Counted from the stretch's first letter, positions 6,764 through 40,199 are shown. The stretch: 64,000 nt of DNA from Marsupella aquatica (GCA_973895155.1 OZ316892.1:25009233-25073232), one strand, 5' to 3'. Notes: generated from the letters alone by a model not told the origin. A program made the numbers and translations.

Positions 6764-8308
6764 TGCTCGGATACTAAAGCCCCGAGCTTGCTCTCCTGTC
6801 TTAACCCTTTCTCTCTGCGCCTGCGAAGCAAGACTCCTCGTTTCTTCCCAGATGTCCCTCCTACGGTCTTTTCGATGTAGACATTATAGGAGACAGCAAC
6901 AGCGAAGCTGCACACTTTCCCGAGTGAAACTTATGGTATGCCGATTCTCCAACTCGTGAGGTATTCGAACCGTAAAAATGCGAACGGGCCCTCGAAGACC
7001 CCAGCAATGCTGGACACGAACTACGGCAACTGCGTCAGCTGTTGAGATTTTAAAACCATCGAGACCCAACTGGCCCTTGCTGTCAAATGGGTTTCTCTAT
7101 GTGATTCTTCCTATCATCTTTCCAATGCTTGCCATATTCTATTCCTCTCGTCACCGAAATGACAATCTAGAGCAAAGAGGAGGACAGACCGAATTTTGCT
7201 TCAGCAGACAACGAGCGACAGGTTCTATTCAATATACCGTACATTGGGGACCCTCAGTCGGGAGGACAGCAGCAGGATGACATACTAAACCACTGCCCAA
7301 TTTGCTACGCACGTACAAGCCAGTGTCACCAGCACTTTCCGAAGACAATATCGAACAGACTTTCACTGATTTCTTAGAACTAGGGACAGACAGAAAGCGA
7401 TGACCGCCCACGAGCCTGAATGACCCTTTCCTACGGAGTTCCCCCACCAGGCAAGAAACACTGCAGGATTCCCACAAGGAGAGACATGCGAGCGCATGAG
7501 CAAATGAGGTAGGACAGTGTTGACGGGAATTTTGCACCACACAAACAGAAGCGCTAGACGGATCCGGGTGAAACGGTAGAACGAAGCAGAGTGCAGCAAG
7601 TTTCTGTCAACAGAGCATTTCGTGCTGCATCTCGACGCTGACTCCCGATAGCAATGGGAAGCGAGTAAGATTGTGCAGCCAAGTTTTGTTTCGAGACGTA
7701 AGTAAACTATGCGACGTGAGAAAGCCGGCTACGTAGGAGAGGAAGCAAGCATACGGAAAGGGGACAGTATCTGAACACCGGCAGTAAGAGATAGAATTGA
7801 GTGGATTGACTGTCCGCTCACCTTCATGCCAGTGTGATCTATTATGGAGAGAAAACAGTTAGCGGGAGAACACCGCCCATGTTATTGTGCAGAGATGGAA
7901 TTGTCTACACAAGAGCAATACATCAGAGAAATACATCCAGGTACGAGAGGAGGGGGCTTTTCCTAGTGTGCCCCGACAGGAAAGGAAGAATGCGAACTGA
8001 ACCAGAGACAGGAGTCGACGACCGGATATATGGTCTCCAGAGTCCAGAAATGCAATACGAAGCACTGGCAAGGAAATTCAGGAAAGCTGCATGCTTTGCC
8101 AGCGCTGTCGGTGTCTCGCCGAGTCGAACAGCCCGGGTACGAGGCATCCTGGTGTAATTCTTGTTCTTGTACAGTACGTAGGAAGAAGGTTAGATGGGAG
8201 CTTGAGCCAGGAACAGACAGTGAATTGAACGTAATCAGACGGGCCCCACAGAACTGTACATTCCGTTTACCCGTCCTGTACTCCCTGAAGCGCTCTGCAT
8301 CCCCCTCC

Positions 8309-8325: not shown

Positions 8326-11300
8326 GCTCTCCCTCCTTCAGTGCATTCACTGATAGCCCCTCTTCTTCACCTAATTCCAATTTATTTACATTTATTGTGG
8401 ATTTCGCATTTTCATTCGATGGACGGTAACAAGACCCACACCTATCACGTTCACAAAATGCCAGAGGCTCTTCACGGTTGAAGATTTTGAGGTCCTGCTT
8501 TTCATAACTGACGCCAAGCCTTGCACGCATTGTCTCCTTCGTTCACTCTACGATATTAATATTAATGAGGTTGACGGTTAGTGAAAAATCATTTATTATA
8601 ACCCTTTGGGCCCCATTCTTAGATGCTCCCTGCCATTTAGGTGACCCTCAACTCTTTCAAGTGTCAAGTCTTTTATGTGCAAAGGGCTTGTGGATAAAAT
8701 CTTTATGTGCAATGGGCTTTGGTAAACCCCACTTTAGGATAGGAACAGCAAGTCTACTTGTGAGCTCGGAACTTCACTTGTCACTAATTACTGCTGCCCT
8801 TGGACTTTGCTTGTTGATGCAAATAATGCCCAGACTAATGTCAAGAAAACTCTACAATTATGTGTATCTTTACAATAAGTAGCATTTGTAAATGTGAAGA
8901 CTGACATCCATATATGTTCACCTTGTGTATGTGATGGGCAGTGTCCAATAACTTGCAACATTGAATGACAAAAATTAATGGGCAAAAATAAATGAGTTTT
9001 CCAAGTGGTGATACCTTTTAGGGAGATTGCTCAGGCCACTTTGCCTTTCTGAGATTTTGGTTACGTATTTTTTGTGTTGAGATTTGCCTAAGACAAGGTC
9101 CATTTTGTATTATTAGATTTTGGACTTGCTTTTGCCCCTTTCTTAATGCATGTTTTTCACACTTTCTTCTCCTATAATTACCCCCTCTTAAGCTCCATAT
9201 TTATTTTTTGATCTTGCCCATCCCTTTATTAACTTGTGATATTTTACTCTTTTTATTAAAATAACATTTAATTGACAGTTCATACGTGAGGGATAGCTTG
9301 GCTAGAATAAAGCCAACTGCTCCCCTTCTAAGTACTCTTTCCACCATTGCTTTCCTAAATATATGGTTTCGATTGATTTATGTGTCACTACTAAAGTCAT
9401 TATCGGAGAAGTACATGAAAGTCCAATTTTTTAGAAGCTAAACATTGTCTTTCAGAAAGTTATGACACGTGGGGAGGGTTGTGGGGCACCACTTTGTAAG
9501 GCCATGAGCGCCAAGGAGATGACACAGGAACCCAGACACAAAACCCAATTTATTCTTGCTTTAAGTTGGTTCATAAAAAATTATCCCAGTTCTAAAAGGA
9601 ATGATTACTTATTCTCCTACATATCAGAAGCTTTTTGAGGGGGAACACTACTAGGCAAGCTACTTTACTTTCAAGACCGTTAGCTATCTCTCAAAAATTG
9701 TTTTGCTGATTTATCTCTATATTATATTATAGTCTTCAAAAAAACTTTAATACCACACAAGAAAGGTTCGTCAAAGTTAGAGCAAATTGAAAAATTCTAT
9801 CGTCGACTCTAAGGGAATATCATAGAGTGGACTAAGATGACAATGCGTGCAGTCACTAATGAAAAGCATGAGCTCAAAGTCTGCACCTTCGTCAAATTCA
9901 GTCTCTTTCTTCTTTTCTGTTTTATTCTTTCACATGGCAAGGACAAGGTCTTTCATCTTTGACAAAGTGATCCGAGCCAGGTCTTCTTCCATCATTCTCC
10001 AATGGCAATGGTTGAAACCAGTCCATGAACTTGATTAGCCTCGTTCAATACAGATATTCAAAAGTTGAAGGTGACTCGCTCCCTTTGCTCATCCATTTCT
10101 TTCCTAACGCAGTACTCAGCATTCCTGCTTAATTGGGATTCAAATGAATTGTTGTGGATATGAACATATCCCAAGGAAATACGATTTATTTATTTTTCTA
10201 AACCTACTTCCATTGTTTATCTGTTAGTTGTCCCTTTTTACAGGTTTTGACCTGTCTGGTGCCTTCGTTTTTCCGTTGGGTTTTTTTTTGGGTCATCATT
10301 TGCTATCTTCATTTGAGGTTCAAGTTTGTTCTCTCGTGATATCCGTTTATGTTTTCTCCATCGTACTTTGTTTTGCCTTCTTTTAGTGCACTGGTCCTTT
10401 TCTCATATGGCAATTACCAACCAACGTTGACCTTGCATGTCAAGTGTTTGGCACTGAAATCATTCATGCAAAACCTTATAAGTTTAGCGACATAAATAAT
10501 ACTAATCATACCAGAAATCCTAACTAAATATCGCTACATTTCTACCTCAATCATGACATTCATGCTTGGCATTTAATGTGGAGCATGCAAAGAGACTCGC
10601 TCTGTCCATGCTTCATCATTCCATTTCTGTACTTCTGATATCAGGCATGAGGATCTTGGACCTGTCTGCAACTCTATTCTCCCAAACTTGATTTTGAATA
10701 TAGAAACTGTTGAAGATAAAGACCAGAAGTTTGAACACTTCATGGATATTTGATGATGATGCACCCATCTCTTTTGATAGCAGTCTGCCTGGCTGAGTGT
10801 AACCCGTTGCGAGTAGCCTCAGCCCAAGTTGCACTTATTTAGTTCTTTCATTTCCAATCATATTTAAGGGAGCTTCAACGCGTTCTTTTTTCCGATCAGC
10901 AAGGAGAACTTGAGGTTCCTTCTTCTTTACTAGGGTGTCTCCAAGCTGACAATTTGATGGACCTTAACTCCCTAGTTACGGGTTAAGGACACAAAAAATT
11001 ATGGACCACCAAATTCATAGTCCATAACTTTTTGACATAAGGATTGGTTGTATGTCATTACCACTGGTCATGGTAGAGGCTGGTGAAAGGAAAAAAAACC
11101 AAAAAACTTGAGAACTTGGTAGTTCTTAGCCTACTGAGAGGGAAACCCGCATTGAGGGAAAACTCTGCCCTAGCACACTAGTAGTGGAGGTGTGTGAATC
11201 TGACCCAAGGGCGATAGAAACCATTGGATTGTTCCACATGACAATCTCACAATCTAAGAAATATTGTGGCTAACCCGGTTTAAGTCACATGACCCATGAC

Positions 11301-11953: not shown

Positions 11954-12456
11954 TCAGGGGGAAGTGCCCTCTTTGGGAAAGCACAGGTTACAAGGTTGAA
12001 GTAAGCTAGGTACACCCAGTTTCCTCTTAAACCGCCACTAGCCAAGACCAAAATGTGGTTACATAGTTTTCACCATTTTTAGTACTTTTCCCAAAATTGT
12101 GGAGCAAAGTCTTACGATAGAGGAAAAGAATGTGAAAAAGTGAGAAGTTTTGGACACTCCTCCTTTTATATGGCCAATGGTGGTTTAATCAAAACACACC
12201 CCACCCAAAGTGGAGTACACTAGATGCACTTTGGTCTCAGCCTTAGAAAACTCAACTGACAATCAGGCAACGGGAGGAGTGAGTTGGGCAGGGGACTCAA
12301 GGCTCATTATGAGCCTTCAATATTGGCTTTTGTCATGAAGTTGTGATCCATCTGAGTGGACAATGTCATTCCACTTTCTAGTCCTGAGGATTTGCTGGCA
12401 CTTGGAGTGTGGTACAAATGGGAACCCATTTTGTGCACTTGAAGTGCTCCCCCTTT

Positions 12457-13664
12457 GCATGTTTGGACTTAACAGGCCCCTTTCGCTTCTTGTGGACTTA
12501 ACAGTTCAACAAGATCATTTTAAGACTTAAAAGGGCCCCTATCACTGTGCACCATTGTGTGTTCTTCTAGGGTCCTTCTGGCACAGTTTCACAGGGAGGA
12601 ACATGCTAAGTTCATTGCAGTAGCACAAAATGGTAGGATGGAGCTAGCAAACTTTTAGCGGAGGCTTGTTTACAAAGCAGGGTTTAGGGTCTTAGAGAGT
12701 GGAGTCGGCTTCGCAGTGAGGCCCCGAGTGAGGCTGGGCAGCAATGGTCTGAGGGGCAGGGAGGACAGAAAAATGTTGATGGGACGCGGGGATGTGGAGT
12801 CGGGTGTGGAGTGATGGTCGTTGGCAGGGATTGTGGCGCCCTTAGTATTTCTATGGCACCTTGACTGACAGAAGAAAAATAGGGTGAAGTGCACTTGAAT
12901 TCACAGGACTTCAATCTTGCAGCGCCTATTCCTATATGTGAAAACTGGCGGTGGTGACGTCCAGATGGATGATTGTCTATGGGTGAAGAATGCAGGTCAT
13001 GGGTCCTTTGTCCTATAGTACAGTTTACAAAATGGTGTCATACCCTTAAGAACTATGTCTTGTCTAGGATAGAATGCTTTCCTCTCCAGCACAAGCAGTG
13101 CAGAAATCACTAGCAGCACAAACAACCTCCCTCCATTTGCACAGCACAACAAATGGACCTCAATCCATTTCCAAATTAGACATGATTGGGTTTTTTCCAA
13201 TTGAGTTCCCAATATTCAGCATTTGACCTCCCACCATATTGATTACTTAGTGTTTTTCAATTGCTCCTTGCATTCCTGTCTCCCTCCCCTTTTCAATGGA
13301 GTCCAGATCTTGGGTCAATTGAAATGCTTTCACTCTGATGTGTAAAGAGGCCCTTCTTAGTGAAGCTCTTTCCTCCCCTCCCCTCCTTCCCTCCCTAGCA
13401 CTTGCTTCCACACCAAAAAATTCCACTCCTTCAGCCACACTAGAACTTTTGGCCGAGGTAAACTGCCACTAAATGTGCAATACTGCGGGCTGCACTGTGT
13501 GGTGTTGCACATGTTCTTGTAACATGCTTAGCAAGGAGTTAGAACCCCAGAACAACACACGATGGAGCACAATGATAGGGGCCTGGTTAAGTCTTAAGAT
13601 GATCTCGCTGGACTCTTAAGTCCACAAGATGCTAGAGGGGCCAGGCTATTAAGTCCAAACTTGC
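12457..13664. mobile_element. Non-autonomous DNA transposon with long terminal inverted repeats (Mutator-like or large MITE)
   Basis: 12457-12571 (gcatgtttggacttaacaggcccc...cttgtggacttaa...aagacttaa...ggcccctatca.tgtgc.ccat.gtgtgtt) matches the reverse complement of ~13546-13664 at roughly 80% by eye. There is no coding capacity and no clear TSD. Confidence 0.7.
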
Positions 13665-14057
13665 GGCCTTTGTGTTTATAAAACTGGCCCTTTCCCCTCT
13701 TTTCGTCCCCTTCATTGGGTTGCTTTGCCTTGGAGATCATGTCTCCCGGTTCGGCGTTTTTTGCCCTTGAACACTGTGATATATATTTTCAAAGGCAAAA
13801 AGAAACCTCAACTTGAAGCCAGGCCAATAAAGTATTCGGAGTGGTCAATTGGGATTGCATCAACAGCCCGCCATCCAGTCTCACATGACACAAGAGCAAG
13901 GTCACGTCCATTGTCGACTGGGCAAGTCATATTGAAAAGAATAGGGCCATGTTAAGTCAACCTTTAAAAAGGGGGGGGGGGGGGAGGGGATATGCGAGTC
14001 TTTCTCTCCACTAGTGCCTATAGAATAATACGTTTTGCATAGTGGTGGTGGAGCCAC

Positions 14058-14510
14058 GTCCCCTTGTTAAAACAAATCTTAGGGGTCCCTGTACCTACGC
14101 TACTATATATATATAAGAAAAAAGAGCTAGGGGGTTCATTTTATCCAACCTATCAAAAATCAAGCGCACACCTCATATGACGATTTATGCTCCTGGAGGC
14201 ATGCTACTAAGTCCAGAGATTAAAAAAATAAAAACGAGCTATGGGAGTTTATATCAATCGTCCCCTTGTTAAAATTCTTAGGGGTTCCTACGCTACGCTA
14301 CTGTATATAATATATATACAAACATAAATAAAAACGAGCTAGGGGGTTCATTTTATCTAACCTATCAAATATAAAGCGCACACCTCATATGACGATTTAT
14401 GCTCCTGTAGGTATGCTAGTAAGTCCAGACATAAGAAACAGCGGGCTATGGGAGTTCATATTAATCCAACCTATCAAAGAAAAGCGCATACCACTAATGG
14501 CGATTTAAAT
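14058..14510. repeat. Tandem repeat, ~200-bp unit, two copies plus a partial copy
   Basis: gtccccttgttaaaa...gagctagggggttcattttatc.aacctatcaaa...aagcgcacacctcatatgacgatttatgctcctg occurs at ~14058 and ~14260, with a partial third copy at ~14445. Confidence 0.85.
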
Positions 14511-15649
14511 GTAAATAACTCCACATAAAGATATCATCCAGTGCAAGTCAAGTTAGTTACTGTGGCACTGCACTCCCTATAAGGGAAAGTGTGTCCCTAT
14601 CGGGCGCCTTTTGTTTTTTTGCAGTATATATTTGGCTTATATCATATGGCTATATTCTGCTGTTAAATAATATCACCAAAATGGACCCTTTATATAGGTC
14701 AGTGATTTTAATCTAATTTCTGATTCCCAGCAGTATAGCTTGCAGCGCTTCAGTATCGCACTATTTCTTAGTCTGGTGTTGCCATGCCAAAAAAACTACT
14801 CTAATTGATTGAATTCAAACAAAAATAAAGCTGCAATTATTTATTTATTTATTTATTTATTTTTTGAAAATACGTGTTTATTAGAGAAGCCACCACGGCA
14901 AAGACCAGCGAGGCAGGCAACAAACCACACAGAGGGTCACACACCCCAATCGGCGACTAAACGCCAAAAATTGCCCCAACAGTACACAAGGTCACCTCCT
15001 AAAGAAAGGCCAAGCCAAGGGGGAAGAAAGAAAAATAACTAAGTTACACAACAGGCAAACAAGGCACCACCTGCAGGCAAAGGGGGGCCTCAATAAATGC
15101 CAAAATAAAGCTACAATGTCAATCCCTTATTTAGTGGATCCCTATGAACAGGCTCCTGGTCATTTGAAGCCCATTTTCATTACACTATTGACTGTTATTA
15201 GTATGACTCCCACTGATTGTGAGCAGGCATATTTAGTCTAAACATGAATCAGCTTTACACACACAGTCACACATTTTTAGTACATCAGTCTGTGTTCCTT
15301 TGGTCTCAAGAGCGGAAATGAATTAATGGAGAAAAAACTGTTTTCAAATTTACACAATAATTTGTGTCAATATCACCCATTTAACCAGCACTTTAGATTA
15401 AAAAAATTAGACTAATGTAGAACTGACAAAAATTAGAATTATAATCAACTCAAGATGATTTAAGTCGCGAATACGACTTTCATCTACTCACGATCTTTCC
15501 GGCATTGCCTAACTCCAACATTGAACCTCTGTAGATTTGCTACCAACATGGTCAATAGGGATAAAATTAAGGATGAGAAGAGTAATAAGAGCAATGGCAG
15601 TGATTATTCAGTCTAGGACTTGAGAAAAGCACGACCATGGATAGCTCTA

Positions 15650-16283
15650 ATGGGCCATTATTGACCATTGAAAAATGACCTATTTTTCAACAAAGCATCG
15701 TAGATACCCAGGAAGCTCTACATGAGCCAAGTCATGGGGCCCTGTATTCCTGCCCGTATTTCCAGGACAACAGACCTAGGGGTCTAACGTAATGGTCGAC
15801 TCAAGTTTATACTTCTATTTTGCGCTGGTTGTCAACCATGGAAAATGAACCATTTTTATAACATATCACCATAGGAGCCCAAAAAAGTACACATGAGCTC
15901 GATCATGAGTTCACATATGTTCTGGCCAACAGATCCAAGGGTTTAAAGCTATGACCAACTCAAGTTTATACTTGTAGTTTTGGGTCAATTACCAATCATG
16001 GAAAAATAAATAAATTTATATTTGTAATTCAAGTTATATTTAAGTTGGAAAATTAATCCAAAATTAATTAATCATGGAAAAATAAATTAGTCCAAAATTA
16101 ATTATATTTGTAATTTAAGTTTATATTTGTAATTCTGGGTCGATTGCCAATCGTGGAAAATATACCTTTTTCTTACAAATCACCATAGAAGCCTAGGAAA
16201 ATTCATGTGAGCCCAATCATGGGCCGCATGTTTCTTGGCTAAGGGATCCAAGGATCTAAAGTCATGTTGTTTCAAATTTATAC
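15650..16283. repeat. Degenerate ~160-170-bp tandem repeat array, left part, interrupted by the P-like transposon
   Basis: Units share caagtttatactt.ta.ttt...ca(a/t)c(a/g)tggaaaa...aaatcacca(t)ag...catgagc...catgggg. The array resumes in register at 25448. Confidence 0.8.
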
Positions 16284-16879
16284 CCCGGGGTCCTCACTTA
16301 TTTCCTTCCGACCCATCACGCGCGAATAAGTATAGGGTTTTTTAATTCAATTTTGCAGAATACTTAAGAAGTTTTGTTGAAGAACTTTAGGGGTTGAGAA
16401 ATACATATTGCAACTTAGAATTATAATAGGGGTGCTAAAAACCTCACTTCTTCAAATTAAGTTGTTAGTTTAAGATAGGGCATTTTAAGAGAGGCCATAT
16501 ATGAGGAACACGTGTCAGTTTTTAATTGGTACACGTGGCACTTCCTTATGTACATTAATAGGTTGTAGGGTTTGGGGGAAAATGGGGGTTCTGTGGTGCG
16601 GTGAGACTTTGAGGGAAAATTTTGAATTATGTGGGCGGGAGGTACTGGTGGCTTGGTGGACCATGATGGGGAAGGGAGGGGTTAGGGTAGGTGGGAGGGT
16701 GGGAAGTGTCGGGGCCTTTAGGGCCATGCATTCGATCCATCCATCCATCCATTAGTTGGGCATCCAATGGTTGAGCGTTGCCTGGCTGTTTAGGGCAAAT
16801 GTGAGACCGTTGGAGAGGATTGCGCCTTGTGAACGCTACGGAGTGTGCAGGGTGAGCCGTGGACCGAGGGGCTAGGTGT

Positions 16880-18000
16880 TGCTTTGATCTTTTTCGAAGG
16901 AAATGCATGCTGAAACTAGCCGGGCTGCTGCAATCGTGATCGATGTGAGCTGGGGGTCGGGGTCTAGGCATTGCTTCGAGCATTTCTTGAAGGAAAGTTT
17001 ACACACAGACTGGGCACTACGGATCTATTGATGGAAGGTGGCAGCTTCGAGTGTAATTGAGGGACGTCGCGAGTGTGACTAAGGTCGCAGCTGAAGTTGA
17101 TCGGGACTAGATTGAAAGTGATTGGGCGACTGCGGGCACTGTGGGTGTGATCAAGTTGGCTGCTGCTGGGATTGATGTGCAAACTTCAATCACAGCCGCA
17201 ACATTGATTCAAGTTGTTTTGAAGGAATTTTTTACACACAAGCTGGGCAAGTCTGCGGTTGTGATAGAGGTGTAGCTGAAGTTGGGGCTGAGTGAAGTTG
17301 GCTGCGCGAATGTGGGTGTTGCAACTTAGTTTGATGAAGGCGCGCTGTACATGAACAAGTGAAAAATGCGCAGGGTGAGATGGGGGTCGAGGCTGTGCAC
17401 TACCGCAAACGTTTTTGAGAGGAATGCACACAGATTGGGTGTTGCAGCTGCGATTGAGACCTTGGGCAATATGTGCAATGGAGTGAGATCGGGGTGCGCT
17501 GCTGCTGTGATGTCCAAGTGAGGTTGGGGTACGCTGCTACTGCGATTGAGTTGGTAGGGGTGCATTGGAGCTGCTACTGCGATTGTTGATTGAAGTTTGG
17601 GTGATCAGTCTGTTGCTGAGTTGCGATTGAGTCACGGTTTACTGTTGCTGTGATTGATCAAGCGGAGGTCAGGGTGTGCTATTGCGCTGCGTTGCTTGCA
17701 AATCCGCATCAAATCAAGATTGAGTGGAGGTCGGGGTGTGCTGCTGTATTGCGCTGCATTGCTGGCTGTGCTCAAGTGAAGGTCGAGTGAAGATTGAGTG
17801 AGTTTCTGTTGCTGTGATTGAGTCGAGGTGGGGTGATACAAGCTTCGCTGTGTTGCTGGCTGCAAACAAGTTCATAGAAGGTGTGGTTGAGTGGTTTGCT
17901 GGTGCTGCAATTGAGTGGAGGTGGGCTGATTTGAGCTACGCTGATCAAGCTCCGCCCTGAAGTCCAAGTGCAAGTAAGCTGCCTGATCAAGCTCTGCTCT
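16880..18000. repeat. G/T-rich degenerate repeats in the 5' region of the transposon
   Basis: Recurrent tttgaaggaa...cacaca.a(c/t)tggg, gggggtcg(g/a)gg and gctgctactgcgattg motifs. The short minus-strand ORFs here are low-complexity artefacts. Confidence 0.55.
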
Positions 18001-19347
18001 AGGCTCGCCTGGGTGACTGTGTTGTGTCATGCTTTGACTGCATCTGGTGGAGTTCTCACTCACTTTCCTACTACTTTAATTTGATCTTTAGACTACATTG
18101 TAGTCAATGCTTGGTTTCTTTGCTAGATAGTGCTGTAATCTTTGTGTCTCGTTTGCTCTCAAGTTCCCGATTGACTTTGCGTGCAGGAAGCCCTATGTAC
18201 TGTTCTTTTGTTTAGAAGCCAGCTATTTGATGCAACTATTCTAGTGATTTTGGCATGGCCAAAGGAGGACTGGCCTGAATGCCCACAATAAGTATTATAG
18301 CTTAGGGTGGGCGTAGTTCTTCTTCCACCCTCTGGAGTACTGTATGGGGATTCTATTTGCACATGGTTCTTTCTGCATGGGACTGACTATATCATTCTTC
18401 CCAGAGTTGCTTTTGACTGTGAATAGCTAATCATTCATAGAACAATGCAGTGTTTAGAGCTCTCAAATAATCCATGATATATGTACCTCCCCCTCTTTTG
18501 CAAGCACCCTGACTACATATTCAAGTGAAAAGAAATAGTACTTTACCATGTTCAACTATGCATTATTCGACTGAACTAGAAATAGACAACTGAAGGAAGA
18601 ATCTAATAAGAATTAGATTAGTTGCTGAAAATAAGTCAAGAATCAAAAGCTTTCATTGACATTCAGTTGGCAATGTGTTGTGCAGCTTGTTCAAGAAGAG
18701 GACAGTGCTTGGTCTAGGGTCTGTGTAATTTTAGGACCTGGAATCAGTTCTTGCCAAGGTACGTTAAGTTGTGGCTCTTGTGTTGACAATGTTATTTCTT
18801 GGTTTATGCTCAGTTCTCCATGACTCTGCAATTGTTTACTGTCTGTACAACTAAGCTCTTTTGTACTCCTTTGTTGTGTCTGGTCTTAGTTATTGGATGT
18901 TTTATGGTATACTTCATTTGCCTCTCTTAAGTCCTTAGTTTATGCATTTAGTCTCCTATTTGCTCTCTACCAGGGAATGAATTTCCATTGGGAATGAACC
19001 TGGCCTCGGTTACACTCCTCGAGCTCAGTCACCTACATTTCTGATCAGTTTAAAATATGTTCTGAACTCTTCTTGCAGGATGGATTGGTTTCCTGATTGG
19101 TTTAGAGTGTAGGGGAAGTATTTCAGAAGCTTCAGCAATATACGTTCAAATCCAAAAATTGTGTACAGAGCAGACAATCAAGGTAACTAATTATGCTTAT
19201 CTTTAAGATGCTCAATTTGTAGTTGCACCAATAACTATGAATGTGCTGTTCAATGCTGAATGGATATCGAGGCAGGGGTTGAAATTGGATGCTAAGTGAA
19301 TGGAGCATTTGTTGTGCACAGGTAAAATCATCATCAGACAAGCTGAG

Positions 19348-20013
19348 ATGGCTTTAGATGTACCACGGATTGACATATTTTCCCATAAGGAGCACCACCG
19401 CATGGATCCCCCTTGTTGTTTCTTCTGTGATGAGACAGATGATGTGGTATTTTGTGATGGTCCTTGTAGTAGACATTTTCACTTCGTTGGTGGAGAAGGT
19501 ATGCAGGGGGCCATTTGCACTCCTGTCACATTGCCTGAAAACAATGACTGGAGGGCACCCTGGGTTTGTCAACTGTGTGCTGCCGGTAGAGCTAGATGCT
19601 TTGCTTGTGGACTCATTGGCAGATTTGAAAATCCCACAACACAAGAATCTCTTGTGCTCCACTGTGCCCACCCTCATTGCTTTTCTCATTACCACCCTGG
19701 CTGCCTTAGGGTGCTACTTATGGTTGGGGCACTGCCTCATAGGTCTCATCCAGCAAGTCCTAAAAACCTAATGTGCCCAAGGCATTTTTGTGACTACTGT
19801 AAAGTCTACAAGGATGGGATTAAAAACTTTGTACAGTGTCGCAGATGCCCTCGCAGTTGGTGTCATGATGAGACACCTGGGGGGGTGAAACACCTTAGGA
19901 GGTGTGTGAAGGGTAGGGACCATTGGGATGTGGAAGGGTGGCATTTTATTTATTGTCACAGGCATGCAATACCTGAGGGGGAATTGGTTCCTGTGCAGCC
20001 TCATACCTCTTAG
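19348..20013 (+). CDS. Multi-PHD zinc-finger protein (NSD/EDM2-type tandem PHD and variant PHD), transposon-borne
   Basis: Open ORF (track 19300-20013). The likely start is MALDVP at 19348, because a candidate splice acceptor ttgtgcacag ends at 19320. Motifs: CFFC..DDVVFCDGPCSRHFH..C...W.CQLC, then RCFAC...LHCAHPHCFSHYHPGC, then CPRHFCDYC...VQCRRCPRSWC...IYCHRH, the Cys/His spacing of NSD-family PHD arrays. Confidence 0.85.
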   Translation: MALDVPRIDIFSHKEHHRMDPPCCFFCDETDDVVFCDGPCSRHFHFVGGEGMQGAICTPVTLPENNDWRAPWVCQLCAAGRARCFACGLIGRFENPTTQESLVLHCAHPHCFSHYHPGCLRVLLMVGALPHRSHPASPKNLMCPRHFCDYCKVYKDGIKNFVQCRRCPRSWCHDETPGGVKHLRRCVKGRDHWDVEGWHFIYCHRHAIPEGELVPVQPHTS

Positions 20014-20288
20014 AGGCTGTGAGAAATATTGCTAGAATTTCTTTGCTAGAGGCCTTATAACATGAGTAATCACATGTGAACAATGATAACAAGATTTTGT
20101 TTTTGTTGGTCTCCAAATTTGGAGATCAAAAGCTTTTTTGAACTATTTTGGAGTAATCTCTAATACTCTTTGTATTGTTTTGTTCACTATGCTATATGGC
20201 AGGTTCAGTCTATATGGGAGGTTCTTTACGTGACTGTGATTGTATTTAGAACCCTTGATCACTCTCTAACTTGAACAAATTGATTGAA

Positions 20289-23200
20289 ATGGCTGCCCAG
20301 TTTGTAAAATTTACTTCACAAAAAAAGGGATGTGGTCATTGATGGGAAAGATGAAGAACCTATAGCTGTGTTGGCCTTCAAAGAAGGACAAACTTTAGCT
20401 GATTTTCGAAGTTGAATTCCTGATTTGGTTGATTTTGATTTTGATTTCTGGGATTATAGACTTCCTGGTCGCATGAAGGTCAAGAGTGAGAAAATGACTG
20501 AGTTGTCTGAATTGGATGGGAAAGTTGCTGTCATTGAACAAATAGGATCCTTGCCGACTGGTAGAACACAGTTTCCATCAGTATCTCCTGCTGTCACCCA
20601 ATCGGTTGCAGTGGACTCTTCACAAGGTGAACAGCTTCAAGAAGCTCCCCCTATGAGAGCTTCTTTTGAGTCTCTTCTCATGTCTCAGGCGGCTGTCAAA
20701 GTCTGGAATGATGAATATATAAGACTAGAGAAGTGGATTCACAAGAATGGTTATAAAGCTCATAATTGGAGAATTCGAACTTGGGATGAAGGACAGGATG
20801 TGAGAGGCCATCTGGAGTGTCTTGAATGTAGAGTGATCTATGGGAGGGCAAACAATTCACAAGATAAGAAGTCAGTTGCTAATTTGTTCAGCAATTTTAA
20901 GACCAAGCACCTTGCCTTTGCTAAACACAAAGACAATTACTGCAGGAGAATGGGCATTGCTATGACTGGGGTCAAGCCCTCAGATCTTGCACAAAAGCCT
21001 GAGTTTGATTATGAGGGGGCCATAGCAACTAGCCTAGAGATAGTCCAGACTCTGAATGTTGAGTGTGGAGGTGATGATGAGCTATTTCATGTGCCCCCTG
21101 TGCCTGGTTTAGCCAATAATGCAAACAAGTGGTTCCTGTATAAGGTCAGGTGTAAGGTTTGTGGGGCAATCATGGATCTGGTTTGTAAGAAGGGGACTTT
21201 GGATCACAACCTGAGGACACACTTGGTCAGTCGGGGTCACCTGGATGTAGTTGAAGCCAGAGAGAATACTGCTGAACTTGCATTGAGATCTGGAAAGAGG
21301 GGCAGACCAAGGAAGCCAGATGAGAGGGATCAACATCCTTCCCAAAATTCAATTTTAAAATTCTTCAAGGAGGATGCTTCCAATGCAAGCAGCAGCTCTG
21401 GCACAGGTGGGTCTGTAGACATCGATATGGGCCTAAGTTTGCTCTGTTGGGGAATATGGGATGAATATGTAGAGTGGAAGAATGTGAAGTATGTTGTGAA
21501 GGGTATCTTGCAGGATCAGCATGGAGGACATGTATGGAATGTGAATGCCACAGTCTCTGTTGATGTCTACAATCCTAATACAAATTCTATTGTACATATA
21601 GAAGGACTATTTAGGCATAAACAGTGTTGTAGGCTGTCCTTGTATGGTGGAGGGTTTCTGAACTTAACTTGCAGTAGATGTCATGCTATAACACTAGAAG
21701 ATGACTTTCGTGGGCGGGTGCACAGGGAAGCGGAGGCTTTAGCAAAGAGAGGGGAAAGAAGCACAGAGGGTGGTTTGAATGCACGTTACTTGACACGTCC
21801 AGAGTTGCCCACATAGATGCATGGTCTCAATGTCAAAAGAAGAAAAGAGGGATGGTTGTTGGCATTACAAAACTCAGAAAGTGTGTGCCCTTAGTACTAG
21901 GAAGAGAAAATTGCAAGAACTGTTAGGAGTAGCTGCAGACAGAAAAGATTTGAGACTTTTCCTAAGGAGTATAGTCAATGGACATAGGAATGGTGCATTT
22001 GGTGGAAAAGAAGGTCTGTGGGATTTTCTGAAAGATGTAGGTAGAAATTTGGAGAGAAGTGCAAGGGGGTTTCGTTACAGTCAGAAAACAAAAGCCATAG
22101 CTCAGGCTATGTTTCAATATGGGGGCCGGTAGGTGGCCCATGTTTTTGCAAGGAACTTAGCTGGGCCAAGCCTGAAGACACTAAAACGAGATAGAGCAAA
22201 ATTTGTTCAATTTTGTGCTGGAATTAGGCCAGAAACATTCAAGGAGGTGGCTTGAATTCTGTCTGCTGCAAAGGAGATATTGGGAATTGAAGGAGATGTA
22301 CCTGTCATGCTTGCAGAGGATGAAACCAGGATCAAGGAAAGCCCAAGGTATGTTTGCATATTATAGCACATAATGATGCAATTGAAGGTGAAGATTATTT
22401 GTGATGCATAGTTTTACCAATTCTTTGAAATTGACTTGGTTTTCATTGGGCTCTCTGCAGGTGGGAGGCCAAATATGACACTTTGATTGGTTTTTGTGGC
22501 CATAAGGATGGGCATACCTGTGAATTTGGATTAGAAATTCTTGTAGGTGATGGTGAGGATGGCTATAACAAGATTGTAAATACATTTGAGGATTTTAACA
22601 AAGGAATGTATGCTAGAGTTGTCATTGTGAATCCATTGCATGTTGGAATGCCAAAGTTGGCCTTCTGTGCTATATCAACATGTAACAAGTTCAAGGCAGA
22701 ATGGGTTAGAGAGCACTGGAAGCAATTAAAAGAATCTTGGGATCTACATTGCAGAGACTCTGTAGGTCCTTTGCTTGGGCATGCTAGTGATGGTGATGCA
22801 AGGCGCAGGAAATTGATGTTAGAAGATTACAGAGGAGCTAATGGGTCTTACCCTAGATTTTCTGTAGGGTGGGAAGGATGGCCTTACTCAGTTGCCATAT
22901 TGCCTAATGGGGACCTGTATGGTTTTGGTGATCAAGACCAGCCTCACAATGGGAAAAAACTTATTAACCCACTAGATCGAGTGTCCTCAATAATGGCACT
23001 TGGAGACCAACATGCTTCCCTGTTTCATGTCTGTAATGTGTACAATAACTATCCAATCCATCAACATGGATTGAATTGGGATGATGTGAACAGATTGGAC
23101 CGTCAAAACTGGGCTGGTCCCCAAAGGATAGCATCAAAAAAGGTGCGTGACTGTTTAGCAGATTTGCATGGAAGAATTGATATGTTGCATGAACGATCCA

Positions 23201-24868
23201 AGTTTGGGGACAGAGTTGTATCTGCAGATCTGTGCAGACTATATTGACATTTTCTACTCCCAGAGACATGACCTGAGGACTAGAGTGAAGCTGGCAGGTA
23301 AAGTTTCTTGGTTCTTTCGATTGTGGAGGTTGTGATTGAGGTATGGTGATCATGCTGTAGGTGGAAATGTTGCTTCACATACAGAGAGAAATATGATATC
23401 AATCCAAGCTTTTCATGATGTTAACATGTCATGTCAGTTTATTGTATTGCTTATATGTGCATTTCGTGATAAGTTTTCTCACTTGTGTATTCCATTTTAT
23501 GAGTTAGGTTCTGATTGTTGTGAGATATTTTTCAGCAAAGTAGGTGGAATGAGTGGCCACAAGAGGAATTATGATTTTGGCTCCTTGCTGGACAGTGCTG
23601 TAGGGTTAAATCATCTTGCTGGATTAGAATGTGGACCAGAGGGCTTGAAAATAGCTCGATCACATAAAAAGCAAGATCATGTATGGGCCAAGCTTCATCC
23701 TTTACTTGAAGGTGAAGATGCACCTAATCTTTTTGATTACTCTGAAGTGCAAACTAATGAGTTGGTGGTTGCAGCCTTGAAAGAAGGTTTTGAAGAAGCA
23801 AGAGAGTTTCTTAGAAGGTTACAAATGTCTCCTAGAAGTGATCTGCCAGCAGCAAGAAAGCGATGGTGGACTCACCCTTGGGATGTGGAAGTTCAGACAT
23901 GGCCAAATTCAGCTATAATAGCAGAGGCAGTTATTGTTGACGATTCTGAAGAGCATGTAGAGCACAGATCTCCAATTGGACCTCGTCCAGAAGGAGATTT
24001 TCATGAATTTGAAGACCCTGAGGAAGATCTAAATCGAATTGATGCATGGTTGGCAGATGAGCTAACCATTCCTGATGATGTTTTGCAGGATGGGGTTGAG
24101 TTAGACATACCAGAAACTCATTCTGTGGAGGTAGATACTTTGGGGCATGAGGTTCGTCATGTGCTGTCTTCTGTTGTAGCTGAGTTTACACAGTCTTTTC
24201 AGAGCCCTCTACAGGAAAAGAAGAAGGTTTTGCCTACAGTTACATATGAGGGTAGAACAATTTACAAATCAACTTTGGTGAGTCAATTAGTGGGCAACCC
24301 TCATTTGTCTAAAGATAGGCTGACAAGAGTGAAGCAAGTGGCATACTATAATCTTGGTAAGAGGAAACAATGTGATCCGAATACTGTGACTTGTTTTGTT
24401 GATGTTGGGAGTGATTGTGGAGTAGCATTTGAAAGTGCTAATGATGCAGGCCCTTCTACAAGATCAAAAAAGGGGAAAGGTAAGGGAAGAGGTAACTCTA
24501 GGATCCAAGAACCAGTAGTGTAAGTAAAGAAAGAATTTTGGCTTGGTCGGATTATGATGATGAGACAAAAAGTTAAGGGACAATGGACTAGAGTGAGATC
24601 TGCTATTGATTTGCTTGACAGACCAACACCTCCTCATGGACACGTAGGGAGTATTTGTCAGTTCTTGTTCAATTGGTATAAGCCAACAAGCTCAAGCAAA
24701 GTTGAATTCACTTATGATACAACTGATTTACAATGGATTGATATAGAAATGGTGATGACTAATGTTACTCTAACCATGAAACAAGGGATTGGATTAGTGT
24801 ATGTGTTAGATCGAGTTGATAAACAAGCTTTGGATACTTATTTGGAGACCATGTCTAGAGTTGAATGA
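20289..24868 (+). pseudogene. Decayed P-element/THAP9-like transposase with one intron (22348-22460)
   Basis: The reconstructed frame gives GPSLKTLKR (compare LPSxRTL), catalytic D in MLAEDET (GAT 22319-22321), ASDGD (22789), DQPHNGKKLINPL (DxxH), DRQNWAGPQRI (compare DKMNV..A.QL) and LGSDCCEIFFS (E at 22522+1000=23522; compare QDxLExFF). The GT-AG intron joins ...ESPR|WEAKYDTLIGFCG in frame. In-frame stops lie at 20413, 22130, 22253, 23333 and 24521, with frameshifts near 20325, 21810 and 23200. Confidence 0.88.
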
Positions 24869-24940
24869 TTTTCATGCATCAATAGTCATGGTAGTGGTTT
24901 TAGTATGTATAGGGGATAGGTTAGGGGAATAGGCTAGGGG

Positions 24941-25001
24941 GTGGCAGATTTGGATACTTAAGCTTCTTGCTCAATCAGGGGTTCAATTCCCCTCTGCCAC
25001 A
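24941..25001 (+). ncRNA. tRNA-like (mascRNA/t-element-like) structure downstream of the transposase
   Basis: Perfect 7-bp acceptor stem GTGGCAG/CTGCCAC (24941-24947/24994-25000) abutting a 5-bp T-stem AGGGG/CCCCT with a canonical TTCAATT T-loop. There is a GG-containing reduced D region and a short stem-loop TTAAGC-TTCTT-GCTCAA. Expression is not shown. Confidence 0.55.
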
Positions 25002-25447
25002 CTCACCATTCAGATTCTTCACTCAATTCCTTTTTGGTGTACCTACCTTTCACATCAGACAAGCACAACAGATTGCAATATGAATAACTCATACTGTATA
25101 TTGTTGAAGCTTCTACTAGAATTGGTATTCTTAGTGGAAGCATCAACACTATATACTATCAGTTTTCCATGAGATATGGATGCCTAAGGAGCACATTAGG
25201 GTTCAAATAAGCTTGACGAAGACCCAAATAAGGTGCGCATTTGAATGAACTTTTCTTTTCTTACTAAGGGGTGTTTAATTCACAACAAAACTTTACTTAA
25301 CTATTTTTAGGGGTCAAAATGTTAGGATTTGGAATTCTTATAAGTATGATAGGGAAGGGGAAAAAAAAATTACTTAATAAGTTAGGGGTGCAAGGGTCCA
25401 AAACGTCGAGCGTGATATGGGGGTCTCTGTATACTGAGGCCCCCGTG

Positions 25448-25610
25448 ATTTATACTTGTAGTTCTAGACCCATTGTCGATCGTGGGAAAATGAATTATTT
25501 TCCAACAAATCATCGTAGGGACCCGGGAAGCTTCACATGAGCCTCATGATGGGGCCATATATTTTTTGGCCATTGGACCTATGGATCTAAAGTTATGGTC
25601 AATTCAAACT
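25448..25610. repeat. Continuation of the ~160-bp tandem array to the right of the transposon
   Basis: atttatacttgtagttct...tcgtgggaaaatgaattattttccaacaaatcatcgtagg...cacatgagcc matches the units at 15802, 15961 and 16145. Confidence 0.8.
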
Positions 25611-28600
25611 CAACAAGAGTCAACCTGCCTCAAGGGACGCGTGTGGACCGAGGAGGTTGTCTGGACCAGAGTGGGTTATTAGGCATTAAGTTCTAGGAAT
25701 TAACCTTCTAGATGAGGCCAAATTGCAAAGGTTTTTTACTGTTGTCATTTTGATTAGGTCTTGGGAGGTTAACTAAGTGTATATTTTTTGGTATCACGTA
25801 CAATTCTAACCTAATACAAATAGACCTATTTCATAAAAAAATATATTCCAAGAATTTTTCATTTTTAATACTAAGAACTTGTTTTATAAAAGATATATAT
25901 TAGAGAATATTCTATAAATATGAGCTTATAATATCTCTTTTTGCCTCCTACGCTTTTTTAAGTTAGATTTTGGATCGCACGTGGTTCCTATGATTTTTGA
26001 TAGTCTACCCCCCAAGAGCTAAGTGGCAGGGCCCATGGACCTTTGAAGGGGGCGCCGGGGGGGGGGGGCAAAGATAAGGAACCAAAGCTGGTTTGGGGAT
26101 CATGACATGTCTCCAAAATCATATATGATGGGGGTAATTCTCTTGAGTTTGAGCTTGAGCTGATCATAATCAACAAAGATACATTGTTTCTAGTTTTAAA
26201 GTTGAAACATGCATAACTCAACAACCAAATCTCCGTTGAAGGAGTACTTGGGCTCATTGGAAATATAATAAAGAAAAGTAACTCATGATGCTCTTGAATT
26301 GTGAATTGGATAGTTTGGTTTTGAGGCTTACAATGAAGGCAATTCCTCTTGTTGTATTTGGTTTGCATGGGAAAGTAGAACCAAACAGACTATGGGGGCT
26401 GCCATTGAGATGTAAGCCCAGATGAATGCATAGTGAGAGCTTGAGCAGAACATGGTTTTGTTGAGATTGAGGTGGCCAAGGGTTAGGAATTGAGTGGTCT
26501 TGACGTGTTACTACAAGCTTGTGACAAACTGAACTTTGGGGCATGGGCATGTCGTGGAGGCAGGGCGATCAACTGCTGACAAGTACAAAGTGAGGAAATG
26601 TGGGTGGCACCCGAAAGAGAGTCTATTCTGGATGAACAATTGATGCTAATCTTAGCTTTTGCTTATAGCAAGCCCGTGTGGGCCTGATAGACTCTATTTG
26701 CTAACGTACTTACTAGTGATTGGTGAGCATGATGCAATGCTCTTGGAAGTTTTAAGATCACTTATTGGTTGGTGGGTTGCTTGTGTAGATAGTAGGGACC
26801 GTTGAACGACCATCATGGTCAAGAGGGCGAGTGAAACTTTACATGAGAGTGGTCGCAAATGACAAAGAGTATAGTCAAAGAATGTTTGCCACAATGTTCT
26901 GTTTTAGTGGAAGGTTTGATTTGTTTCAAGGTTTAGAGCCAAATTTGGACGTGCACGTGGTGAGAGATCCACCACTACTTTCAACAAAATTAATGTTAGT
27001 AACCCTAATTCTTACAAAGTAGCACTAATTATGGTGAACAACATAGTTCACCTGGTGGGAAGTGCTCCAATGCCCAACCTACTCAGGGTGTTCACTAAAC
27101 TTATTATAAGCATTGTACTCAATTGGGGTATAACACCCATGCCTGAACTACTTGGAGCATCCTTCACAAACGTGAAGCATTCATTGATTTAAAACATTTG
27201 ACCATTTTTGTGCTCATAAAAAATGGAGGAATTGATCTAAAAAAATTCAAACTTTGTGAGGTAATCGATAGAATATAGTCATTAGCAAAAGTGAAGAGTC
27301 CATCCAGAAAAGGTTACTATTTTTTTGTGTACATTGACTGATGACTGTATCCTGTCCACGGGCATGGGTAGAACAAACCCTTGGTTAATCCAGACTAATA
27401 TTCCTTATTTTTAAGATCTTATGATGGGAGACATGTTTGAGAAGATCACACCACTTGCGAAGCTCTTTGGATAAGGATAAGGAGTTCTCACCATAAGGCA
27501 TGTTTCATTTTCTGTCTTGTACTTTTCCATTAATGATTTTCATTGTAGACCTATCTCGAGACCTATTCGCAAAGGTCATGATTGGCTTAGTGCAAATATC
27601 TACAAAATTTTTCAAAAAAGAACCTATCCGCCCAACTTGCTGAACCAAGTATGACTGGTGACTATTTTTTGACAAAAAGTGACACAACATGATAAAAGCT
27701 CAGCACAAATGGAAAGATATGCATGAAAACTTCAACAAACGGATAAGAAGTATGAGGTTACGTATAGCCCTAGTTTCCTTGGAGGTCAAATATTAATTCT
27801 TCAGTAGTCATACTATTGTGACTTCAGGAAGTTATTGGGTGAGTGGGAAAGGGACCTTAAATGTCAATCGTCACTTGCCCATGGTGCTAGCATTGGGGCT
27901 AACATTGTGGAATTTAATATTGGTTATCACAATAGGATTAGCCCAATAAGCATGTGACGCATGATTATTATGGGGGCATGTGGAGCCAAGGAAATGTTGG
28001 AGCAAGACCTAGGCAGCAGTGTTGCGATAGTCAGGCCATAGCACCATGCAGTGCTGCTAAACATTCCTCAGGATGGCGAGCAAGGGAGGGATGCAAGGTT
28101 GCAGCGTGGGCAAAGTGAGGCAGTGTTACTTTCTCCCACCCATTTTGCTCCTCTCCCTCCCCACACGGGCATTGGGCAGGGAGGCAGATCTTCATGCGGA
28201 GACCAAGGCACGGCCTGAGCAGGCTGTGTACGCTGGGCCAGACAAGCCAGCGTGCAGGATGGCAAGCGCAATGTGCAACGACAGGGTGAGAGGAGTCAAG
28301 TGGGTAGGCTTTAGGAGGGGTCTGCTGGTGATCCAATGGGGCAGGAGAAAACAGGCACATCACCTAACGGCTTCCTGCCCACAATTCCATTTGTAAACAG
28401 AATATGGAGGAGTTCTCTCAAAATTGCATATTATAGTGATTGATGTATACTGATGTATAATTATGTTGATGTCTCTTTGAATAGTTTTTAATTTTTTTTT
28501 AAAAATAAAGGGGAAATCTGTGAAACCCCATAGGGATCAGTGAGTCACAACTTTTGAACCCAAGATCTATGAATCACTACTCAAGTGAGCTATCACATAG

Positions 28601-32784: not shown

Positions 32785-33958
32785 TAATCCATGGACCCCC
32801 ATGTTATTTTAGAAGCAGTTATCTAGAAACTGAAGCCTAGATGGACCCTCCAAATCTAAAGAAAAAAAATTCAAAAATGGACAAGTCAATGTTTGACACT
32901 TGAAACAGTTGCCAAACTTATTAAGGCAACCATAATTAACATCAATCGCAAAACCAGTTGCAATGTGAACTATTGTTTAATGTGTGGGTAACTTAATAGT
33001 CCACTTCAGCAAAACGGTGCTTGACTATTTCCTCCATGGTACCGAAGGGATGCTGGATGCACTCAAGTTGCATAGAAAGTAATCACTTTTCAATTCCTAC
33101 ATGCACATAGACGAAGAGAGAGAAGTCATCAGTGTCATCAAATCACTAACTTTGCATAATAGTTTAAGACAAAAAGTTTCATGGAAACAAATCTCCAATT
33201 GTGTTATTTGGAATCAGTCAAAAGTTAGAGAAATTTAGAAATTCATGACCACTTTATTGATAAAATCTCCCAATGTTACACTCATTGTAAAGCTAGACAA
33301 CATTGGAAACTTATAATCTCCTCAGAACTCAACTAAATCTATCAATGTTAAGTTCATTAAAAAGCTAAGAAATTCTAAGATTCATAATCTCCTTAGTACT
33401 AGATAAAATTTGTCAATTTTAAATTCATTCTCATGGAAGGGGTCAACATTTGAGGGGTTGTACAACAAAAGATTTCTATTCACGTTAGAGATTATGAAAT
33501 CATGGGTAAAGTCTAATTTTCAAATTATTTACTCAATTCTTTCCGAATGGTGACAATGCTAAGCTCATCAGGACCGTCTCTTCAAGATCTTTCCAATGCC
33601 ATATTATACATGAGTTTTCGTTGTGATTTGACTCAGCAATGTCAAATCAAAAATTCATACTGGGAAAATTTTATGTTTTGAATAAAATTAAAATATAAAT
33701 AAAACCGTTACTGGGAACAGTTTTACCTCAATCTTTTTGTCTTTTGATTTACATGTCAATTTTTTTTTCATTTTTTAACATTTTTTTTACAATTTTTTAA
33801 ACAATTTTTTACGACATGGCATCTCAGTTTTTACAACAAACTTGTCACAAACACGAATGCAAAAGTTAATTTTATCCAAAAATAAATCTCTTCCTGTTTG
33901 CAGCATGTCATGATGATGTGGCATGCTGTGGAGCTAGGAATTTTACAAAGGACCCCTA
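32785..33958 (+). repeat. AT-rich dispersed repeat, copy 1 (probable non-autonomous TE)
   Basis: Collinear with the reverse complement of 50393-51205, for example ggacccccatgttattttaga...tctagaaactgaagcct and actggga.cagttttacctcaatc.tttt gtcttttgattt. Confidence 0.85.
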
Positions 33959-39249: not shown

Positions 39250-40100
39250 TGCCTTGCATCAGTCGCTCTGCTACTGTTGACACTGATGGCAACATCAGCC
39301 AAAGCAAGTGTAAGGTAACCTACGGTTTTGATGACGGCATCAGTCAGCTCACTGCAATGGCCCTTGAGCTAGTCTTGAGCATACCCATGTTCTCCAATTT
39401 GTGATAATACTCTGTAACTGCACTTGACTACAGCTAAAATGTCTCATGAAATCAGCTACTACAGTCAATACCCCAATACCCATCCACCAAATGCAGCCGC
39501 TGTTGGAATGTATTGATTTAGCTCCTTCTGCAAGTTTGATTCACGATGACTTGGCATCACCATTTGTTTTTCCTTCAGCTGCTTTGCTCCTTAATTGAAG
39601 ACCCAGACACTTCAATCCAGGTCTTTAAAAAAAAAAAAGGGCACATGCTGTCAACATAAAAGTGAAGTAGAACAAGACATGCAGAGGATTGGCTTCAATG
39701 TCTCCCAAACTGGTACTAGGAGGAGTGATTAATTACCAACACACATACTATTTCAACGCCGACAGAAGACCCAGACAAGTTCTTCCTTTGCGACATCCTT
39801 AGCTGAATACCCAAACAACTTTCAATCCATGCCTATATTTTCTGAATCCTGATCCTCGCATCACCTATTCAGGGAAAAACTTGCTGAAATCATCATGAAT
39901 ACTATGACTACCGCAAGGATTCGACAGATGCTCCAAAGATGCTAGCACTGAGTAACTGATTTCAACATTCCAGATAGATGTATGAACTCCGGTTAAAGGA
40001 AAAGAATACTTTGTACATGAATTTGTTTTGGTTGCAGAATCACACCACCAAGCCTGGACACTCCTTGATTCAACGAACGGGATTGTCAGATTGTTCCGCA
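39250..40100 (-). mobile_element. Possible hAT-type transposase C-terminal remnant
   Basis: Weak minus-strand fragments resembling LDPRFK, EL..Y and W..H..YP.L..A in the expected order. Very degenerate. Confidence 0.25.
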
Positions 40101-40199
40101 TCTACTAGAAACTATGCAAAGAAACAAGAGGGTCCACAGATTTATTTAAAGGTTCGTCCTAAGTATCATTAATGATAAGTAAACATAAGTAGCACCCAT

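Follow-up and report, generated by a model that had tools for sequence, protein, structure and literature searches.

Among DNA transposons, the P superfamily is known mainly from animals, with P elements also present in green algae, and its termini are of the CA...TG type. To our knowledge, the P transposase is the only one that requires GTP and leaves 17-nt staggered ends. In the closest described systems, Drosophila P and THAP9, DDE transposases with a DxxH motif are associated with target-site duplications (TSDs) of 8 bp, a terminal 3' G and an internal site of about 10 bp near each end; the P element itself has perfect terminal inverted repeats (TIRs) of 31 bp, spacers that differ between its ends (9 and 21 bp) and an 87-kDa protein whose GTP-contact residues include S409, D444, N447 and D528, and the THAP domain is confined to animals (PMC7776569; here and below, papers are cited for those parts of them that were available). 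The subject of this account is a transposon of very probable P affinity in a 64,000-nt stretch of Marsupella aquatica (GCA_973895155.1 OZ316892.1:25009233-25073232; hereafter the window, with positions counted from its first letter), which carries a decayed transposase gene and a separate, intact gene for a PHD-finger protein. The preferred reading, with a probability of about 0.68, is that of a dead copy of a multi-copy cut-and-paste transposon from a P branch that is deep and lacks THAP; its second gene encodes a predicted reader of histone marks.

The element shares with P/THAP9 the predicted catalytic fold, the 8-bp TSD, the terminal G and the internal motif. It differs in its imperfect 13-bp TIRs of the pattern C[ACT]CGGG, in an internal motif at equal offset from both ends, in the size of the transposase (about 1,500 aa in this lineage), and in having two C2H2 fingers instead of THAP, a predicted C-terminal β-barrel and a second gene. 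The zebrafish P-like (THAP9) transposon is similar in its 13-bp TIR, short subterminal inverted repeat, 8-bp TSD and internally deleted copies, but has a THAP domain, a single gene and, some 400 bp from the end, a 12-bp repeat (PMC7776569).

A DDE transposase accompanied by a separate PHD-finger gene, and ends in which a spacer separates the terminal repeat from an inner motif, are also found in the RAG1L-RAG2L transposons, where the PHD of sea urchin RAG2L binds methylated H3K4. However, RAG2L consists of kelch plus one PHD and not of an NSD-type multi-PHD cassette, and the partnership is universal in RAG-like transposons and local here (PMC7204232). The plant two-gene TIR elements of the MuDR/MULE, CACTA and PIF/Harbinger groups likewise combine a transposase with an accessory gene (PMC9033089, PMC12973397); PHD domains are rare in MULE transposases and accessory proteins, with five rows in Table S6 of the latter source, which has no BAH row in the part cited. 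Kolobok shares the C/DxxH motif and includes lineages with accessory proteins, but its target duplications are 4-bp TTAA and its termini are of the RR...YY type (PMC9587614). PHD modules recur on transposons of other superfamilies, which lowers the surprise of finding one here.

Boundaries and End Structure

The transposon occupies positions 16284-25447 (9,164 bp), and its features are listed in Table 1. The exact 8-bp TSD reported by a first-pass annotation of the window is indeed present. On its own, the combination of TSD and TIR is weak, as one further pair occurs in the 64-kb window and three pairs in 10 Markov shuffles. Such a frequency, about 0.3 per shuffled window, would suit boundaries produced by short repeats that happen to pair around an old remnant of a transposase, or by an assembly artefact, and no empty site was found among the listed contig joints (no direct search of the host assembly was made). 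This explanation is nevertheless largely refuted and retains next to no probability. The summed contig depth in run X1 steps from 19 in the flank to more than 12,000 at the first element bases, and unrelated flanks are joined exactly at 16283/16284, with a consensus agreement of 0.36-0.40; this holds for 40 of the 268 X1 contigs and for 43 of the 440 from X4. Depth and junctions were read from contigs of public sequencing runs, possibly including the source of the window itself, and summed depth is not equivalent to copy number. The many unrelated flanks that meet the left end in these contigs show that the transposon is multi-copy, with many insertion sites; the expectation that other copies share its terminus is thereby confirmed by dozens of flanks.

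The insertion target, a degenerate tandem array, gives independent support. Its unit of about 157 bp regains register after removal of the element together with one TSD copy (9,172 bp); rejoining in register had been noticed before, but the length removed had been given as 9,164 bp. Spacings of array repeats over the element amount to 9329-9331, that is, 9172 + 157-159, BLAST alignments traverse the rejoined junction, and a period of 158 fits best there.

The third line of evidence is a 10-bp inverted motif that both ends carry at position 32 and that is absent elsewhere in the element at up to one mismatch. In relatives, the motif was found in 6/41 correctly oriented candidate ends, compared to 1/30 wrongly oriented ends and 32/7354 random positions, and its offset across the lineage is 32-34. 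It is likely a transposase-binding site. The termini of relatives are also of the same type, beginning with CCC, CTC or CAC, with the first C alone invariant. CA...TG termini, as previously proposed for the element, thus fit its right end but not its left end, and C[ACT]CGGG describes the lineage better. Because the depth step with its unrelated flanks, the array register, the motif at position 32 and the like termini in relatives all agree, the boundaries are secure and the element is real.

Short non-autonomous derivatives are likely to share the very deep segment at the left end. At 85% likeness, coverage is far lower over the 5' part (16784-19009) than over the two genes; this part differs among copies by many deletions and contains degenerate GCT-rich short repeats at 17150-17930. 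In one relative locus (L023:1-52, minus strand) a lineage-type end has its inner motif facing away from the transposase, and probably represents the end of a neighbouring or nested copy.

Table 1. Positions and supporting evidence for the features of the transposon and its insertion site.
Feature	Position	Strand	Evidence
Left TSD, 8 bp, ATTTATAC	16276-16283		Identical to 25448-25455
Right TSD, 8 bp	25448-25455		Identical to left copy
Left TIR, 13 bp, begins CCC	16284-16296	+	11/13 identical to right end; pattern at the two ends only; depth step and unrelated flanks
Right TIR, 13 bp, begins CAC	25435-25447	-	11/13 identical to left end; pattern at the two ends only
Degenerate tandem array, unit ~157 bp, insertion target	15655-16275	+	Resumes at 25456 and continues to ~25600
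Very deep left-end segment	16284-16350	+	Summed depth in X1 12,000-18,000 at 16288-16323, ~1,200 by 16351, 19 in flank
Left subterminal 10-bp inverted motif (position 32-41), putative transposase-binding site	16315-16324	+	Same offset at both ends; unique in element
Right subterminal 10-bp inverted motif (position 32-41 from end)	25407-25416	-	One mismatch to left motif
Two putative non-coding 5' exons	18686-18758, 19079-19182	+	AG/GT contexts read by eye
Intact open reading frame, 221 aa, NSD-type multi-PHD zinc-finger cassette	19348-20013	+	PF22908, E 1e-7; upstream ATG at 19300
Transposase gene, ~1,500 aa, decayed	20289-24868	+	tblastn of intact homologues of 1,423-1,530 aa
Two C2H2-type zinc fingers in place of THAP	20818-20928, 21151-21240	+	At least one finger in 7/7 proteins, both in 5/7
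Predicted helix-turn-helix before RNase H domain	22118-22183	+	Residues 1-467 of homologue model aligned with 168-566 of P transposase
Catalytic core	22313-23536	+	D 22319, D 22789, DxxH 22936-22947, helical insertion domain, D-x-x-E with E 23522
Putative GT-AG intron in transposase gene, 113 bp	22348-22460	+	Gap in homologue alignments; frame restored
C-terminal β-barrel, BAH/Tudor-like, predicted chromatin reader	24401-24865	+	Homologue model residues 701-853

Superfamily Placement of the Transposase

The transposase very probably belongs to the P superfamily, and predicted structure is decisive for this placement because sequence alone fails to reach P. The fold was modelled for a relative, P0014 (865 aa, alignment of 102 sequences, pLDDT 84.9), which is 51% identical to the window core. 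Via this model, the best Foldseek matches are 6p5a and 6pe2, both Drosophila P transposase (E 1e-8), followed by RAG1 (2e-3); the alignment to 6p5a has a Z of 24.4 and a root-mean-square deviation (rmsd) of 3.3 over 371 residues with 14% identity. The P transposase was again the top match in a search of 48,161 chains carried out without Foldseek. The P-type helix-turn-helix (HTH), the split RNase H domain and the helical insertion domain of the model superpose on those of Drosophila P transposase. In a language-model atlas, the THAP9/P clusters score 0.92-0.95, after an unannotated, mostly basidiomycete cluster at 0.96, and all ten of the best family-bearing matches fall in the THAP9/P group. 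The P affinity claimed in the first-pass annotation is borne out by these comparisons.

Other transposases superpose far less well on the P0014 model. The hAT transposase Hermes reaches a Z of 8.4 with an rmsd of 8.1; the motif residue is Asp and not Cys in 94/97 sequences, and the 8-bp TSD is all that is held in common. For MuDR/Mutator, the IS256/Mutator-type ISCth4 gives 8.6 with an rmsd of 6.7 over 245 residues, so that the catalytic fold differs from that of plant two-gene elements, and there is no MULE Pfam match. Kolobok is rejected on the 8-bp TSD and C...G termini, which are neither TTAA nor RR...YY. Fold, TSD or termini thus went against each of hAT, Mutator and Kolobok, the alternatives that had been named beforehand. 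Transib (10.0) and RAG1 (9.3) also remain far below the value for P and are likewise rejected. No Pfam match to Zisupton/KDZ, Novosib, Dada or Academ was obtained in 57 homologues, and the fold lists did not contain their structures.

All the transposase motifs listed previously are present in the window, namely AEDET (22313), ASDGD (22783), DQPH (22936), DRQNW (23098) and SDCCEIFFS (23510). The catalytic acids and the residues of DxxH are highly conserved in alignment A4 (D71 76/76, D190 94/96, D237 94/97, H240 97/97, E432 84/84), and the spacing of the last motif resembles D528/E531 of P, D429 being kept in 73/84 sequences and E432 in all 84. DxxH, as opposed to CxxH, had earlier been called typical of P; C/DxxH is common to five superfamilies (PMC9587614), and DxxH alone is not diagnostic of P. 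Among the profile matches, P0077 exceeds the cut-off of PF12017 (Tnp_P_element) as one of 38 relatives, with one more weak match, and PF21787 and PF21788 (P RNase H and GTP-binding) are each weakly matched by one of 19 homologues. Both ends were recognised in three elements only, the window copy and the relatives L003 and L001; the TSD is exact in the first two and absent from the third.

If the lineage were instead a sister superfamily of P, distinct in its C[ACT]CGGG termini and possibly independent of GTP, this would explain why identity over the structural alignment is only 14% and why profiles fail to reach Drosophila P; Repbase classifies by PSI-BLAST convergence (PMC4455052). The differing N- and C-terminal domains, the unannotated top cluster of the atlas and the number of homologous clusters (5,172 at 50% identity, E up to 0.001) could also be taken in its favour. 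This alternative is improbable: the Pfam cut-off for the P HTH is exceeded in one relative and others show the weak RNase H and GTP-binding matches, the insertion domain of the model superposes on that of P, and the 8-bp TSD, 13-bp TIR and subterminal inverted repeat parallel zebrafish P-like elements (PMC7776569).

Domain Organization and Decay of the Transposase

The transposase of the window copy is dead. Its frame is interrupted by stops at 20413, 21814, 22130, 22253, 23333 and 24521 and by frameshifts near 20310, 21870 and 23196. At least part of this damage is copy-specific, since other copies in the run contigs read differently at 21814, at 24521 and at all three frameshift sites. The remains can be aligned along their whole length to intact proteins of 1,423-1,530 aa, and the gene is intact in relatives. 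The copy had been called complete, which is true of its ends but not of its transposase. The CpG observed/expected ratio is 0.15-0.18 in the coding regions and 0.15-0.22 over 18000-24870, whereas CHG is not depleted over the latter interval (about 1.1); the depletion in coding regions is as expected from long methylation.

The N-terminal region lacks the THAP-type C2CH pattern in all seven full-length or N-terminal proteins, and the Pfam scans gave no match to PF05485. The absence of THAP excludes the animal P/THAP9 branch, not the P superfamily. The N-terminal model (pLDDT 79, pTM 0.39) gave no fold match above Z 8; its best matches were ribosome-hibernation and double-stranded RNA-binding-domain-like folds, at Z up to 7.8, which are regarded as a common arrangement.

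The C-terminal domain is predicted to form a β-barrel that is probably a BAH/Tudor-like chromatin reader. It matches the BAH domains of EBS, DNMT1, ASH1L and ORC1 with Z 6-7 and an rmsd of 2.2-3.6 over 79-94 residues, and chromo and Tudor barrels with Z 5-6.5; a search of PDB sequences with a C-terminal profile returned nothing relevant. This barrel, like the subterminal motif and the loss of THAP, goes beyond what had been noted earlier for the element. C-terminal additions vary in distant relatives, with a PTM/DIR17 Tudor domain in P0064, SAP in P0089 and C1 in P0093, all above the Pfam cut-off.

The PHD Gene

A separate PHD-finger open reading frame (ORF), as predicted in the first-pass annotation, is present upstream of the transposase gene. 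PF22908 matches above its curated cut-off, PF23011 and PF23004 match weakly, and the top atlas clusters are PHD_NSD, mostly from Streptophyta; a profile search of the PDB found nothing relevant. Three homologues were found in all. Two of them (P0053 and P0054) are stand-alone proteins of like size on short contigs, 55-57% identical, and 29 of 41 Cys/His residues are kept in all three sequences; P0055, the third homologue, is deleted and frameshifted.

Other copies of the family also have the PHD gene alongside the transposase. In four runs its depth bins are as deep as those of the transposase (in X1, 594-745 compared to 252-746, with a flank of about 20). A contig from X4, which has 23 differences, spans the end of the PHD gene and the start of the transposase. 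However, the two-gene layout that had been put forward as the family architecture does not hold for the lineage, in which a complete relative, L003, has one gene. The layout is real, but a local add-on and not a property of the lineage. The PHD stop and the transposase start are 275 bp apart and a good acceptor context lies at 20203, for which reason the two proteins may be two products of one promoter, depending on the choice of acceptor (19322 or 20203).

The cassette may resemble EDM2 or ASHR3, and if the PHD gene were a captured host fragment, its source would presumably be an NSD/ASHR3- or EDM2-type gene. Such a fragment, carried without a role by a P-type transposon as in Pack-MULEs, would fit the lack of the gene in the 78 relative loci and the one-gene layout of the complete relative, the ordinary plant PHD_NSD proteins among its atlas neighbours, and the decayed state of P0055. 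It is rather unlikely given that the ORF is intact beside nine breaks in the transposase, is present at transposase-level depth, and has stand-alone homologues of the same size at 55-57% identity. No longer host protein containing the cassette was found among 3,201 candidates, which is weak evidence. Granted the P-type assignment, the role of the PHD gene has probably been maintained. EDM2 is reported to bind H3K9me2 at transposons (PMC7529245).

Relatives and Distribution

A search with a 270-aa core ORF retrieved 52 proteins, including 20 from Riccia fluitans and R. sorocarpa and one from Calypogeia fissa, encoded on contigs of 11-77 Mb. Nearly all of these liverwort homologues are labelled hypothetical or uncharacterised; one UniRef label reads Transposase. 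The profile search extended to 5,172 clusters, of which the best 150 were examined, and no relatives were found in viral contigs. The tree was built from 140 core sequences and 446 columns and rooted at the midpoint without a P outgroup; it bears few host labels and includes sequences that align over at least 330 residues (300 for loci). It groups the window with two proteins, then with five Riccia proteins (support 0.997), then with a clade containing Calypogeia. Because the closest named relatives are Riccia and Calypogeia proteins, the transposase lineage is present in land plants (liverworts), as judged from sequence relationships; the earlier claim of a land-plant element is upheld by these 21 named proteins.

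Among 78 metagenome loci, L003 is a complete one-gene element of 6,096 bp, with a perfect 26-bp TIR, an exact 8-bp TSD and an intact ORF of 1,520 aa. L010, L011 and L012 share one right end next to three unrelated flanks. L001:308-9065 is an 8.8-kb relative with an intact 1,517-aa ORF, matching ends and 3.3 kb of unexplained 3' sequence, and is possibly a chimeric assembly. Automated scans of the relative loci for TIRs with TSDs gave a clear pair in L003 only, and low-complexity false pairs in GC-rich loci. L079:53-1677, a relative 39% identical and located on a contig of 2.1 kb from an archaeal metagenome-assembled genome, was the sole match in prokaryote genomes and is likely eukaryotic contamination.

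Evidence Against and Proposed Mechanism

Several observations weigh against the reading as a P-type element with a second, functional gene. The fold was predicted for P0014 and not for the broken window protein. Searches of PDB sequences with three transposase profiles returned no P chain at E up to 10, the same search with the window core returned nothing relevant, and none of the five window transposase pieces has a Pfam match. The equivalents of the P residues in contact with GTP, assigned by matched spacing only, seem to be conserved in part (D528 in 73/84 sequences, S409 as S303 in 43/94, D444 as D339 in 25/87), and there is no Asn at 342, the likewise spacing-matched equivalent of N447. 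The matching ends of L001 have no TSD. The barrel match lies under the Z 8 caution line and has no support from sequence (BAH at E 0.14 in one of 19 homologues). The PHD gene was found in none of the 78 relative loci, many of which are too short to hold one, its ORF is short and more easily intact by chance, and the splicing was read from sequence only.

If the P-type reading is correct, the role of THAP would fall to the N-terminal C2H2 fingers, with the 10-bp motif 32 bp inside each end as their binding site, and the HTH would hold the terminal repeat. Once the ends are paired, excision and insertion with an 8-bp stagger would take place at the DDE site, as established for P; use of GTP is plausible by analogy. 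The C-terminal barrel may bias insertion or activity according to chromatin state. The PHD gene would be a lineage-specific accessory, likely kept for reading histone tails, and its protein would most likely aid target choice or sustain expression inside silenced chromatin.

A broader proposal is conceivable and is put forward tentatively. In this scenario, a large, undescribed and Pfam-invisible THAP-less P lineage would exist in early land plants and other eukaryotes, with C2H2 fingers in exchange for THAP and a BAH-like reader added. The family of the window would then have recruited an NSD-type PHD cassette, expressed by splicing from the same promoter, and would use two-part histone reading for targeting or escape from silencing, in parallel to RAG1-RAG2.

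Other Features of the Window

Immediately to the right of the element lies a very deep repeat (25883-25970). Loose ends are numerous at its positions 25883 and 25967, and it likely represents the end of a different repeat family. At 33673-50639, an exact 8-bp AT-rich direct repeat abuts an inverted repeat matching at 13/13 positions; the members of this second pair are 17 kb apart and may delimit an element or have arisen by chance. The minus strand contains an unbroken ORF with seven RCC1 repeats (53352-54956) and an open frame of 565 aa with no Pfam match and an internal 24-bp tandem repeat (5189-6883). A perfect 137-bp tandem duplication is located at 59840-60113. Pfam scans of 68 further ORFs of the window yielded no marker of lineage.

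Prior Record and Significance

Full-text literature searches found no P family in land plants, Repbase and Dfam being outside their scope. The lineage is therefore apparently unrecorded in land plants, and the novelty suggested in the first-pass annotation stands provisionally. A review from 2022 lists, in the part cited, six land-plant TIR superfamilies without P (PMC9033089). A survey from 2025 used Pfam at E <1e-5 to screen 1,007 plant genomes for 17 superfamilies, P among them, and the seven that it reported did not include P; it counted only recently active, near-identical copies and, as far as the part cited goes, did not include Riccia or Calypogeia, and so is no proof that P is absent (PMC12973397). 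At that threshold, a P domain was detected in none of the 57 homologues scanned here, for which reason a class of plant DNA transposons has probably been filed under unclassified repeats and hypothetical proteins.

A group of transposons described chiefly in animals thus likely has an overlooked branch in land plants. The intact relative L003, at 14% identity, could show whether the need for GTP and the long staggers go back to the ancestor of the superfamily. The exchange of THAP for C2H2 fingers alongside a conserved inner motif would show how recognition of transposon ends is rebuilt. Should the barrel and the PHD cassette indeed read histones, the element would offer plant research a compact model in which chromatin guides insertion or silencing is counteracted.

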